Shown one piece after another: positions 30,244 to 35,728 of a stretch of DNA of 64,000 nt (position 1 is its first letter; each line of letters opens with the position of its first letter). The stretch is from the NCBI GenBank assembly GCA_963708295.1, contig CAVPSJ010000004.1, positions 768,001 through 832,000 of the forward strand. Reading direction: 5' to 3'. Position numbers and translations under genes: made by a program. This DNA comes from an uncultured delta proteobacterium. GTDB taxonomy: Bacteria > Desulfobacterota > BSN033 > UBA1163. The notes below the pieces were generated by a model. That model worked only from the letters and a program-made list of their open reading frames with translations. It was not told the origin of the DNA and ran no database searches.

Positions 30244-30353
30244 GGGCAGATTCCTAGCAGAACCTTTTAATGGCGACTATTATACCCTTATGATGAATGA
30301 AAATGAAATCTAAAATCAAGAGGGGACGGGATGAGGGCTTTTAACTTGCCTAA

Positions 30354-30382
30354 TTGACAACATTCATATACAACCATAGTAT
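30354..30382 (+). promoter_or_regulatory. Sigma70-type promoter of the selenoprotein gene
   Basis: TTGACA-17 nt-TAGTAT. Confidence 0.65.
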
Positions 30383-30434
30383 AAGTGATATTTATTGGCG
30401 ATGGAGTCAATTTCAATGAATTGAGGAGGAGGGT

Positions 30435-31337
30435 ATGGAGCAAGGGGAAAAAACAGTCGATGGGTTTCGGTTTCTTCCGCCCGGGTTAGCTGCGTGGATT
30501 CGAAGATTCATTCCTGACGAAGAATTCAAAGGATTCATTCCCTGGACACCCATGGCCAAACCCTTGAGCCAGACGACGCTTGCTTTGGTGACCAGTGCTG
30601 GGATCAGTTTAAAGACAGATCCTCCTTTTGATATGGGAAGGGAAAAAAGGGAAGCCATCTGGGGTGATCGGTCTTATCGAGCGATACCGAGAGGGACAAC
30701 CGAAAAGGATATCGAAGTGAATCACCTCCATATCAATACGAACTACATCAAACGGGATATCAATGTTATCCTCCCCATGGCTCGAATGGCTGAATTTGAG
30801 GAAGAGAAAATTATCGGCCGCCTTGCGCCCACTGCTTACTCATTTTATGGATTCCAGTGGCAGAATACCGATTTCTTAAAGGAAGCCATCGAACCCATTT
30901 CCAGAAAGATGAAACTTGAAGGGGTCGAGTCAGTCCTTATGACTCCGGCCTGACCTTTCTGCTGTCAGTCGGTCGGACTGGCTGCGAGATTCTTAGAAGA
31001 GGCCGGTTTTTCAACCGTTGTCCTCACACCTACCTATGAATTTCATCGGGCAGTAGGGATTCCGAGATCGGCGGCGATCGAATATCCTTATGGTAGGCCA
31101 GTGGGTGAAGTGGGAGACAGGGAAGGTCAGAGGAAAGTTCTTCTGAAAACTCTTCAAGTACTTGAAAAAGCCGAGCAACCCGGAGAGGTCTGGCATCTTC
31201 CGTTTATCTGGCAGGAAGAACCCAAGAAGACAGATTGGCAACCCCCCGAGATGTCTCCTCTCATCAAGTTCTATTTGGAAGATATTAAGAAAGCCAGAAG
31301 AGAACAGGAAGAACGAGCAGCGAAAACGAAGGATTGA
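30435..31337 (+). CDS. PrdB/GrdB-family (glycine/proline reductase selenoprotein B-like) selenoprotein, 300 aa, Sec at codon 173
   Basis: ALVTSAG, D.SYRAIP and DINVILP motifs. TGA at 30951-53 is followed by an open frame PFCCQSVGLAARFLEEAGFSTVVLT...PRSAAIEYPYGRP that runs into ORF 31101..31337 in the same frame. U-P-F-C motif; SECIS-like hairpin; SD GAGGAGG. Confidence 0.88.
30964..30982 (+). promoter_or_regulatory. Bacterial SECIS-like hairpin
   Basis: GTCAGTC-GGTCG-GACTGGC: a 7-bp stem with a G-led loop, starting 10 nt after the in-frame UGA. Confidence 0.72.
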
Positions 31338-31556
31338 TTTTGGAGAGAGTGTCAAATCAGGTTCCGGCTAGTTATTTCACCTACTCCTAATTTCAATATA
31401 ACTCCGGCAGCTAACAATTACGGGTAGAAACATGAACAATAAGAAAAGAAAGAACAGTGCTTTCCTTAATCGAAATCCTTGACCATCTCCCGCTTTTCGG
31501 ATCCAGAAAGTTTTATATAACTGCCGGGTAAAATGTTCTATTTAACTTTATCTAAT

Positions 31557-32218: not shown

Positions 32219-32981
32219 CTATTTTTTGAAGAGGATATCACCGTAATAGGCGGTGGCGGACTCGCCGGTGTTGTCGGTGTCGGTCATGATGGCAATGCCT
32301 GAGATCATCGGCGGTTCTTGGCCAAAAGCCTTCTTATAGTCCTCAAAGATGTTTCTTTCTTCGTTGACCCATTGATTGAGTTTAGACGGTCCACTTTCCA
32401 CCACAAACATCATGACCCGATCGGTAAAGGGGTTGGGGACCATTGTCCCAATGGGAGATTTGCTTTCCCAGATATAGTTAATTGCAGCCAGAGGTGGGTA
32501 CTCCCCGTATAGCAATCGGATGGCTTCGTATTTCGCTTTTTGAAGAAAGCTCAATTTGGAGGGATCGTATTCAAAAGTGATATAAATTCTGGCCGGGTAG
32601 TCGTCACCCTCCTTTCGGTGTACATCACCCTTTTTCAGGATGTTCATCACTTTCCAACGCCATTGCACGACTGGATATTCTTTGGGATTGATCTTAATCT
32701 CCCGGGTCAGGCCGGAGGCCGAAGCCTCTGCCACAGCCTTGATGACCACGGTATTGTCGTCCTTGACGAGTGTATAAGTTGTATGCTTTTCGATCTTCTT
32801 AAAAGCAAGGGGTTTCCAGCCAGTCGGGAAGGCCCTGGCCTACTGTTGCCGCAGAGAACTTCCCAACTTCAATGATATTCTGCAGTTGAGCGGAGGCGCT
32901 CCTAGAAAAATTGAACAAGGCGATCACCAAGGCTGGAACCACAACCGCAACAGCGATATGAAGTTTTGGGCGCAGATTCAT
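32219..32981 (-). CDS. DUF3047-domain secreted protein (one +1 frameshift near 32823)
   Basis: Signal peptide in 32799..32981 continues as (G)WKPLAF...WRWKV...GDDYPARIY...IAIMTDTDNTG in 32219..32749. Confidence 0.8.
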
Positions 32982-33356: not shown

Positions 33357-34487
33357 TTACTTCTTAATGAAAAGCTTTGAATACTCCCCGTAGCCCTCCT
33401 TTTCCAAATCCTCCTTGGGGATGAACCTCAGGGCTGCGGAATTCATGCAATAACGAAGCCCTGTGGGCGGTGGCCCGTCGTTAAATACATGGCCGAGGTG
33501 CGAATCGCCATGCTTGCTCCTTACCTCGATGCGCTTCATGAAAAAGCTTCTGTCTTCCTTCTCAACGATGTTGTTCGGGCTCAAGAGGTCTTGTAAAGCT
33601 CGGCCATCCCGTCCCCGAATCGAACTTATCCAAAGAACTGAATAGAGGCTCACCGGAGACGATATCCACGTAGATTCCTTCCTTATGGTTATCCCAGTAC
33701 TCATTTTGGAAGGGCTCTCTCCGTTCCGTTTTTCTGGGTCACCTCGTATTGAAGGGAAGTCAATTTCTTTTTCAAGGTTGCATCATCAGGTTTCTGATAG
33801 GATTTTTCTTCTTTGGGTTTCACGGTCTCCATTTGCTTTCCCCATGTCTTCTCCAAGAACTGGTCACGACCAGACCCGTATCGGTAAAATTTGTATTTGA
33901 GTGAATGGGTCTTGTAGTAATCTTGATGGTAATCTTCTGCTTCATAGAATTTGGTGAATTTAAGGATCTCTGTGACAATCGGTTTATTGAACTTTCCGGA
34001 TTTGCTCAGCGCTTCCTTTGACTTCTCCGCTAATCGCTTCTGGTCTTCGTCATGATAAAAGATGACGCTTCGGTATTGGGCGCCTCGATCTACAAACTGC
34101 CCGCCTGCATCTGTGGGATCGACATGTTTCCAGAAGTAGTCGAGCAATTCCTCATAGGTAATCTTTGAGGGGTCATAATAGACTTGCACGGCTTCGACAT
34201 GGCCGGTCGTTCCGGAAGATACCTCCGCATAGGTCGGGTTCTCCTTGTTCCCACCGGTATAACCCGATATCACCTTCACCACTCCAGGTAGTTTCTCGAA
34301 ATCAGATTCCGTGCACCAGAAACAGCCACCGGCAAATGTGGCTTTCCGCAGGTTCATCTCTTCCTTTGCCGTATCCGTCTTCATCTCCCTTCTGAACAGC
34401 TTCGGAGCGTTGGTTTCCCATCATGAAAAATAATACCACTCCAATTATGAAAAACAGGCCCATTCCAATATATAATAAAGTCTTCAT
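33357..34487 (-). CDS. msrAB: Exported bifunctional methionine sulfoxide reductase MsrA-MsrB (three +1 frameshifts)
   Basis: N-terminal TM/signal, then [21 protein letters not shown] (MsrA). Across the frames come GTER(P)[25 protein letters not shown] and [23 protein letters not shown] (MsrB). Confidence 0.9.
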
Positions 34488-34569: not shown

Positions 34570-35728
34570 TCAAATGATAATCACGAATGCCGGGAATTCA
34601 ATAAAGAAGATGTAAAGAGCTGTGTAAAGATTATGTAAAGATCTTCGTGAGGTTGGAAGGTCTACAGCAGGGAGGGAAAACCAGATCCGGGTTTCGTCTT
34701 CAGAAATCTCGGCTCCAACATGTCCATCGTGAGCCTCGATCAACTCTTTCACGATGGCCAGACCGATGCCAGCACCACCATGCTCACGGGATCGCGATTT
34801 CTCACCCCGGTAGAATCGTTCAAAGATGAAAGGAAGATCTTTTTGAGAGAGTTCTCCACCTGTATTGGCGAAGACGACCTTCATCTCCCCTGAGGCTTGC
34901 TCAGTGTAGATTCTGACAAATCCCCCTGTCGGAGTGTACTGACAGGCATTTTGCAAGAGATTGGTCACGACCTGGGATATCTTATCCGGATCAGCGAGAA
35001 CTCTATCCGCACCTTTGCCGAATTGGGTCTCAATCCGAATTTTTTTTGAGTCAAACTGAGGTCGGAAGATGTCGAGTTCCTGAAGGATCAGATCTTTAAT
35101 CCGGACTCTCCGTCTTGTGAAGGTCCATTCGGGCAGCATCTGCCTTGGCCAGCCGTAAGACGTCTTCCACGAGGTGGACCAATCGCATGGTTTCCTCCTG
35201 AAGCAGTTCAAAAGTCTCCTTTGTGGGAGCCGCCACTCCATCTGTCAGAGCTTCGAGATACCCTCTGATGTTGGTTAAAGGGGTCCTGAGTTCATGGGCG
35301 ACGTCAATCATCAACGTCTTTCGAAGGCCTTCGATGCGACGGAGGCTTTCTGCCATCCGGTTGAAAGAGGCGGCGAGTTGTCCCACTTCGTCCCCCGAGA
35401 CAAAAGGGACTTGGCCCGAGTAGTCGCCCGTCGAAATTTTCTGGGCAATCGTCGTCATCTGTCTGAGAGGACCCAATACTTTTCTCATCAGCAAAAAGCT
35501 GAGGACCACAGCCAGGAACAGTGCAGCCAGGCTGGCCCAGATGAGGTATCGATGGACGGCGCTCACAAACATCTGGTGACTTGATGTGGGTGATATATTA
35601 TATTTTTCCATCAAGGCCATGAAATAACCGGCAGCGAGGTAGTCGATCGCCATCCATACAATGACGATGACAGAACCGATGACCAGGATATTTATTCCGA
35701 GGAGTTTCCAGAGAAGGGTTCTTGTCAT
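34570..35728 (-). CDS. HAMP-domain sensor histidine kinase (one +1 frameshift near 35108)
   Basis: Two TM segments, HAMP (DEVGQLAASFNRMA), H-box VAHELRTPL; HATPase NLLQNA, FERFYR and GAGIGLAI in 34570..35241. Confidence 0.9.
34600..34641. promoter_or_regulatory. Four tandem TGTAAAGA-like direct repeats, probable OmpR-family operator for msrAB
   Basis: AATAAAGA (34600) and TGTAAAGA at 34611, 34623 and 34634; 11-12 bp spacing; about 110 bp upstream of the msrAB start. Confidence 0.55.

Follow-up and report, generated by a model that had tools for sequence, protein, structure and literature searches.

Does the open reading frame (ORF) at positions 30435 to 30953 of a 64,000-nucleotide stretch of DNA from an uncultured delta proteobacterium (contig CAVPSJ010000004.1, positions 768,001 to 832,000; here called the window) end at its TGA codon, or is that TGA read as selenocysteine (Sec, U), and, if so, what kind of protein does the gene encode? 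The ORF closes at TGA 30951-30953, directly after the residues ...VLMTPA. An earlier note, made from the letters of the window, had proposed that the frame stays open for 49 codons past this TGA and joins the ORF at 31101 to 31337, giving a 300-amino-acid relative of PrdB and GrdB, the B subunits of D-proline reductase and glycine reductase. Our translation agrees with this gene model. Judging from sequence comparisons, we consider it probable (roughly 80%) that this is one monocistronic 300-amino-acid selenoprotein gene and that it belongs to an orphan PrdB-like clade working without PrdA/GrdE, GrdA, and PrdC.

We found a single frame on the forward strand (coding sequence 30435..31337) that runs from the ATG at 30435 to a final TGA at 31335-31337, with TGA 30951-30953 as its sole interruption. 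The read-through translation is LMTPA-U-PFCCQSVGLAARFLEEAGFSTV, in which Sec is residue 173. The Sec motif is TPA-U173-P-F-C176-C177; both the U-x-x-C motif and the extra adjacent cysteine described earlier can be read from it. The listed ORF at 31101 to 31337 is merely the first GTG within the same continuing frame. In the window's ORF list, no start codon occurs across the 49 codons between the TGA and that GTG (30954..31100, forward strand), a coding stretch that carries C176, C177, and a conserved helix.

We compared this codon among 18 orthologous loci, namely, the window and 17 loci from genome contigs. The 17 loci represent metagenome-assembled genomes labelled Thermodesulfobacteriota, Syntrophaceae, or Deltaproteobacteria, plus one labelled Thermodesulfovibrionales. 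We found that the codon is TGA in all 18 loci, which are independent assemblies; the in-frame sequence 3' of it in the 17 loci and the window is PFCCQSVGLAAR. Since TGA, and not TGC or TGT, recurs at the same codon in independent assemblies, a read error does not account for it. An orthologue (identity, at least 74%) is present in 29 of 61 related genomes, among them all 14 others of the genus, and the in-frame TGA is present in 29 of 29 carriers and in 14 of 14 of these congeners. When 401 genomes were sampled evenly from the phylum, matches with an E value of 1e-15 or below were found in 114, and among the matches listed, every one that spans the site has the in-frame TGA. Orthologue-level matches (at least 58% identity) were found in 23 of the 401 genomes, from five families.

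The 49 codons after the TGA are an in-frame coding sequence under purifying selection. Variable columns number 19, 12, and 47 of 49 at codon positions 1, 2, and 3, respectively, and the codon differences from the window comprise 375 synonymous and 59 nonsynonymous changes. The two alternative frames of this stretch contain stops in most sequences. We also looked at the true terminal stops of 16 orthologues and found 10 TAA, 2 TAG, and 4 TGA codons, whereas the internal stop is invariably TGA. TGA is the ordinary stop of 6 of the 16 neighboring ORFs in the window, and therefore, it is not reassigned in this genome. As a separate observation, one orthologue (L030:6001-6640) keeps the TGA and loses the frame about 12 codons later (...GLAAS, followed by unrelated sequence), which is due either to a frameshift or to a fault in the assembly of that genome.

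We then turned to homologues in protein databases. The best 120 matches from a collection of 5.8 billion proteins comprised 4 full-length proteins (288 to 296 amino acids) and 116 fragments (171 to 196 amino acids) whose coverage is exactly the portion preceding the TGA. Of the full-length proteins, P0003, P0004, and P0005 have Cys in the Sec column, and the fourth has Trp. When 67 database homologues with 230 or more amino acids were aligned, 43 had Cys in the Sec column, 9 had Ser, 5 had Gly, 3 had Trp, 2 had Asp, 2 had Thr, 1 had Asn, 1 had Glu, and 1 had a gap, in an alignment where three rows (P0174, P0192, and P0234) are visibly misaligned at this column. The Trp of the full-length homologues P0002, P0193, and P0221 is either a real TGG or a TGA rendered as Trp by the source's gene caller. 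The earlier note had raised the alternatives that homologues are two separate genes or lack both Cys and Sec at residue 173; instead, the homologues are colinear with the read-through product, with Cys or TGA at this position. Taking together the conservation of the TGA, the Cys homologues, and the mixed terminal stops, we confirmed by comparison the prediction that TGA 30951-30953 is decoded as selenocysteine, U173 of TPA-U-P-F-C-C.

The genome of the window (4.95 Mb in 20 contigs, 91.5% complete) has the machinery for this decoding, the lack of which the earlier note had regarded as damaging. We found selA (625 bits), selB (353 bits against a cutoff of 242), and, at a distance of about 5 kb from selA, a tRNA-SeC(tca). 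The selD gene is present twice (G000:C17:66608-67531 and G000:C4:371872-372792), each copy with one in-frame TGA in a G-U-A-A-K context. Thus, the organism would make at least two other selenoproteins. Both selD genes have a hairpin 3' of the TGA, which shares no visible sequence with the hairpin described below.

A bacterial selenocysteine insertion sequence (SECIS) is a stem-loop just 3' of the UGA, with G and U in its apical loop. The stem-loop that had been noticed 10 nucleotides past the TGA is present, with a 7-bp core of GTCAGTC (30964-30970), the loop GGTCG, and GACTGGC (30976-30982). In the minimum-free-energy fold, this core lies within a SECIS-like helix at 30958 to 30989 (forward strand) of 12 pairs, interrupted by a U/U mismatch and a one-base bulge; depending on the extent assigned to the helix, it starts 4 to 10 nucleotides 3' of the UGA. 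The 66-nucleotide stretch folds moderately better than its shuffled versions (z = -2.57; 3 of 200 shuffles fold equally well). With the 18 sequences taken together, 99.1% of the 216 cells of the helix are paired, compared with 14 to 44% when the 3' partner is slid by one to three columns. Six of its pairs vary, on one side only and always with pairing retained (C-G/U-G and U-A/U-G). The 5-nucleotide apical loop varies at synonymous sites, and its G-U is invariant. Presumably, the hairpin resembles the SECIS of Escherichia coli fdhF, which has G-U in the loop and an unpaired U beneath the upper stem. We concluded that the hairpin is well conserved and correctly placed for a putative SECIS.

To which family would the read-through product belong? 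On profile matches, it appears to be a member of the PF07355 (GRDB) superfamily that is closest to the D-proline reductase subunit PrdB, as had been proposed. The Pfam GRDB profile matches residues 35 to 170 at 40.2 bits (cutoff, 22; E = 3.3e-10); the match covers profile positions 214 to 345 of 347 and reaches position 345 at residue 170, just ahead of Sec. The best NCBIfam match is PrdB (TIGR04483; 136.9 bits; E = 7.2e-40), which covers residues 37 to 260 and profile positions 20 to 235 of 238 and scores below the equivalog cutoff of 300. The selenoprotein B subfamily TIGR01918 scores 47.5 bits against 65.45 and is matched in its C-terminal half only (profile positions 218 to 421). The protein thus falls outside both PrdB and GrdB proper yet is clearly in their superfamily. 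Residues 1 to 36 and 261 to 300 fall outside the family matches and are conserved among orthologues. Cys177 is found only in this orthologue group and in the Cys forms closest to it; other homologues have other residues there, commonly His, Asn, or Thr. Paralogues at 30 to 40% identity have U-G-x-C-N-Q or U-P-x-C-T-R at the same site. Some homologues have a different domain architecture: P0132, a 495-amino-acid metagenome representative, joins an HTH_3 DNA-binding domain to a Cys-form PrdB-like domain, and several homologues of 380 to 415 amino acids have an unannotated C-terminal extension of about 170 amino acids. We considered these fusion forms as a hint to function and found them uninformative.

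We predicted the structure of the whole 300-amino-acid chain with AlphaFold2, using the 67-sequence alignment, and obtained a mean predicted local distance difference test (pLDDT) score of 96.6 and a predicted template modeling score of 0.93. The model is an alpha/beta domain in which strand 166-170 is followed by U173 and then by helix 174-189. Invariant or nearly invariant residues in the alignment are G56, F65, D78, R82, D108, P114, G139, E188, G191, T194, P210, R211, P218, G220, and G224. Of these, G56, G139, P218, and G220 come after predicted strands, and Rossmann-like folds usually place their active sites after strands. A sequence search of PDB chains found no relative (best match, 2hls; E = 0.34; CxxC stretch only), and a Foldseek search of the PDB with the model returned nothing at an E value of 0.001 or below. 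The best VIA-align Z scores (8.4 to 8.0) were to LacI-type proteins, periplasmic-binding proteins, and short-chain dehydrogenases, a level typical of models without a true match. These fold searches establish neither a new fold nor a function.

The most likely mechanism, as inferred from the motif and the model, is a selenol/thiol redox center, U173-x-x-C176, at the start of a helix. According to this model, SelB and tRNA-Sec would decode UGA 30951-30953 as selenocysteine, guided by the downstream stem-loop. The nucleophile would be Sec173, which the Rossmann-like alpha/beta fold places where a beta-strand ends and a helix begins. Cys176 would resolve the resulting adduct to give a selenenylsulfide, and Cys177 may join in the same resolving step. 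Such selenenylsulfide resolution by the Sec and Cys residues has been proposed for PrdB and for GrdB. A cellular dithiol system, e.g., thioredoxin, would then reduce the selenenylsulfide.

PrdB and GrdB have partner subunits, and the earlier note had found no gene for PrdA/GrdE or GrdA nearby. We found that this extends to the whole 91.5%-complete genome. It has no match to Gly_reductase (PF09338), the family of GrdE and PrdA, and none to GRDA (PF04723) in a search that had no positive control. The best match to PrdC (TIGR04481) scores 39.2 bits against a cutoff of 490. PF09338 and PF04723 were likewise matched in 0 of 14 control genomes. PF09338 does match in 11 of the 61 related genomes, and thus, this search works. 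Seven of these 11 are among the 29 carriers of the orthologue, and the other 22 carriers have no match. In the seven, PF09338 always lies beside a separate GrdB-like match, an open frame of 430 to 465 codons on another contig. One such frame beside GrdE (461 codons; L043, G022:C93) reads T-U-G-S-S-T-R-C, with its next Cys at +6 from Sec instead of +3. The gene itself is single copy in the genome of the window. Because neither PrdA/GrdE, GrdA, nor PrdC was found, and because 22 of the 29 carriers likewise lack a PrdA/GrdE match, we take the product to be a stand-alone PrdB-like protein and not a D-proline reductase.

Several observations weigh against parts of this reading. The bases of the hairpin also encode the conserved peptide CQSVGLAA, we saw no double compensatory change among the 18 sequences, and the shuffle control on pairing across these sequences was uninformative; therefore, the conservation of the hairpin is not independent of that of the protein. 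In addition, an Rfam scan of 30300-31500 at E values up to 10 gave no SECIS family and three chance-level matches, and so, the earlier SECIS claim holds as to the conserved 12-pair helix with GU in the loop but has no match in Rfam. The similarity of the fold is only generically Rossmann-like (best Z, 8.4) and thus lends no functional support. In some distant homologues, Ser, Asp, or Gly stands in place of Cys176, and therefore, the U-x-x-C couple is not universal in the superfamily. Finally, a partner could sit in the unassembled part of the 91.5%-complete genome, or an unrelated, unrecognized partner subunit may be present.

The last point leads to the alternative of a reductase complex in which this protein serves as the B subunit and a carbonyl or pyruvoyl group is borne by a partner that either has no homology to PrdA/GrdE or has its gene elsewhere. 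Sec would then attack a substrate carbon activated by the partner, as in proline and glycine reductases. The closest characterized relatives, PrdB and GrdB, act only with a pyruvoyl subunit, as stated in the available text of PMC11229817, and the conserved extensions at residues 1 to 36 and 261 to 300, outside the TIGR04483 match, could be docking surfaces. We nevertheless consider this alternative quite unlikely, given that no conserved neighbor was found in 43 orthologue or 11 paralogue loci and that PF09338 is unmatched both in this genome and in 22 of the 29 carriers.

It is very improbable that we are dealing with a true D-proline reductase prdB and that the assembly of the genome has missed its prdA. 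PrdB is the best NCBIfam match, truncated fragments of the family are named "D-proline reductase (dithiol) PrdB" by JGI, and the genome is 91.5% complete, all of which would suit this explanation. However, 136.9 bits is far under the equivalog cutoff of 300, PrdA/GrdE was not found and PrdC was not above its cutoff in the genome, and 22 of 29 carriers have no match to PF09338, which elsewhere stands beside a different, GrdB-like frame of 430 to 465 codons. In Clostridioides difficile, moreover, prdA and prdB share a gene cluster, according to the parts of PMC11229817 at hand. It is scarcely credible that translation truly stops at the TGA or that the codon stems from a sequencing error, in which case the region would hold two genes, a pseudogene, or a misread Cys codon: frameshifted genes elsewhere in the window (msrAB and a histidine kinase) do indicate that the assembly or the genome carries lesions, but TGA occupies this codon in each of the 18 independent assemblies and in the phylum sample as well, the 49 startless codons after it are under purifying selection, and a full-length fold is predicted with a pLDDT of 96.6 across the junction.

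How does the stand-alone PrdB-like protein compare with known systems? It is like the D-proline reductase subunit PrdB (TIGR04483) of Clostridium sticklandii and C. difficile in that this is its best family match, its size is broadly similar, and a bacterial-type SECIS would lie just after the UGA. D-proline reductase (TIGR04483) is listed with a UxxC Sec motif in the available text of two selenoproteome reviews (PMC13188914 and PMC9312934), and the present protein has U-P-F-C. Unlike PrdB, it scores under half of the equivalog cutoff, lies outside any prd cluster in a genome in which PrdA and PrdC were not found, and has conserved N- and C-terminal extensions and the extra Cys177. It has 300 amino acids with Sec at residue 173, whereas the U151C variant of C. 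difficile PrdB is a 25.7-kDa protein and Sec is residue 151 there; in complex with processed PrdA, this variant is inactive (both in the portion of PMC11229817 available to us).

With selenoprotein B (GrdB/GrdF/GrdH; TIGR01917, TIGR01918, and PF07355), the protein shares the C-terminal domain and a Sec at the homologous site. In contrast to the full architecture of about 430 amino acids, it has no N-terminal half of about 210 residues. It also differs from the glycine, sarcosine, and betaine reductases in that GrdA and GrdE were not found, and genomes of the same family that have GrdE carry a separate GrdB-like frame. In outline, the protein resembles CxxC/UxxC oxidoreductases of the thioredoxin fold, which place a redox U/C-x-x-C at a strand-to-helix junction. 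There are marginal echoes in the protein disulfide oxidoreductase 2hls at TP(A/S)CP(F/Y)C (E = 0.34) and in PDO_seleno_TRX (E = 0.0054), neither of which is significant. Unlike these enzymes, the protein has a predicted fold that is a larger Rossmann-like alpha/beta domain. The likeness to the thioredoxin fold is a mechanistic analogy and not family membership.

The family is not new. PrdB-type pfam07355 UxxC selenoproteins were already listed in selenoproteome surveys (Zhang and Gladyshev 2005, 2006, and 2008). "Proline reductase PrdB" appears there as pfam07355 with UxxC, with 235 Sec and 110 Cys sequences in the Global Ocean Sampling (GOS) set (PMC2398784, Table 2; see also the available text of PMC1088965), and in Table 3 of PMC1794560, the selenoproteins of Anaeromyxobacter dehalogenans and Geobacter uraniumreducens, two Deltaproteobacteria, include "proline reductase." The protein studied here has the same descriptor as the "PrdB" of the surveys (pfam07355, UxxC, and both Sec and Cys forms), a likeness that concerns the description given in their accessible parts. 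In those parts, the surveys keep orphan PrdB-like proteins together with true PrdB and assign proline reductase function to all of them. In a literature search of openly accessible papers, apart from the survey supplements, none turned up that sets orphan PrdB homologues apart as a functional class of their own, and the phrase "PrdB-like" was unmatched.

Upstream of the gene, the sequence GAGGAGGAGGG at 30423 to 30433 (forward strand) is Shine-Dalgarno-like and stands directly 5' of the ATG at 30435, as noted earlier. The promoter claimed for the gene fared less well. The sigma-70-like match TTGACA-17-TAGTAT is present at 30354 to 30382 (forward strand) and agrees with the consensus at 10 of 12 positions, but we counted 2 promoter-like sites in the region where shuffled sequence gives 2.0. 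Because shuffled sequence yields as many sites, this is a consensus match and not proof of function; a promoter here is plausible. In a look-up of sequencing runs, no RNA run was listed as containing the sequence, and the best DNA runs contained 0.21 of the words sampled from it.

We monitored the gene neighborhood in 43 distinct orthologue loci (47 fetched, of which 4 were duplicates) and in 11 paralogue loci. No neighbor is conserved across families in either set. In 16 of the 43 loci, all in this family, the gene is divergent from a tmk-holB-PSP1-metG operon. The neighboring ilvE encodes a bona fide branched-chain aminotransferase (453 bits; cutoff, 307). It stands directly upstream in the window, as the earlier note had pointed out, but in only 4 of the 43 loci, the window included, and therefore, we rejected it as a partner. 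In another family, the orthologue is followed by an RNase_H_2-family gene (3 loci). One paralogue group (3 loci) lies between genes for a solute-binding protein and a Dioxygenase_C-like protein. These three loci (L033, L035, and L038, from one genus; paralogues at 32 to 34% identity) have U-x-I/L-C-N-Q, with a divergent SBP_bac_1 solute-binding protein gene on one flank and, following the paralogue, a gene whose small product weakly matches Dioxygenase_C or CarboxypepD_reg. A DUF3047 gene (window positions 32219-32749, reverse strand) recurs within 5 kb in 10 of the 43 loci, mostly convergent and just downstream, in this family only; shared ancestry may explain this.

The genes msrA and msrB lie within 5 kb of the orthologue in 5 of the 43 loci, from three lineages and in three arrangements. 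They are convergent and 2 kb away in the window. In one genus, they are on the same strand downstream, at 265 to 434 nucleotides in two loci and at 4.4 kb in a third, and in another family, they are divergent at 141 nucleotides. With one copy of the gene per genome of about 4 Mb, this proximity would be above the chance expectation. Since related genomes are not independent cases and we counted only once the pattern had caught our attention, we treat it as a lead and not as evidence. Thus, of the msrAB redox module suggested earlier, the nearby msrAB genes are there, but they amount to a weak lead and not a module. From this lead comes a tentative idea about function, which we consider rather unlikely: orphan PrdB-like proteins would be a distinct class of selenoenzymes without a pyruvoyl partner that serves the repair of oxidative damage rather than Stickland fermentation, e.g., as a Sec-based reductase that cooperates with MsrAB, recycles it, or acts on some other oxidized sulfur or selenium compound.

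Two neighboring genes of the window are themselves broken. At 33357-34384 (reverse strand), msrA and msrB look like one fused msrAB that is frameshifted twice within the N-terminal half of its MsrB portion; the broken gene continues in the other two frames, and an intact 374-amino-acid fusion is found in L047. The lesion is due either to assembly indels or to a pseudogene. A histidine kinase gene at 34570-35728 (reverse strand) is split into overlapping ORFs, one for HAMP and HisKA (35096-35728) and one for HATPase_c (34570-35241), which suggests another frameshift.

To a selenoprotein specialist, the finding itself would be unsurprising; its value lies in the correction of annotation and in the question of the substrate, for which a confident predicted structural model (pLDDT, 96.6) now exists. 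Many of the fragments of 171 to 196 amino acids that end before the TGA carry the JGI name "D-proline reductase PrdB." Because gene callers split the gene at the Sec codon and the fragments are named PrdB, both the gene model and the Stickland metabolism that it implies would be wrong for this lineage within the phylum Thermodesulfobacteriota, in which some genomes are labelled Syntrophaceae. For the family, the stand-alone PrdB-like protein would represent a large, strictly Sec-using branch of the selenoprotein B superfamily that has no pyruvoyl partner of the kind that defines the known enzymes.

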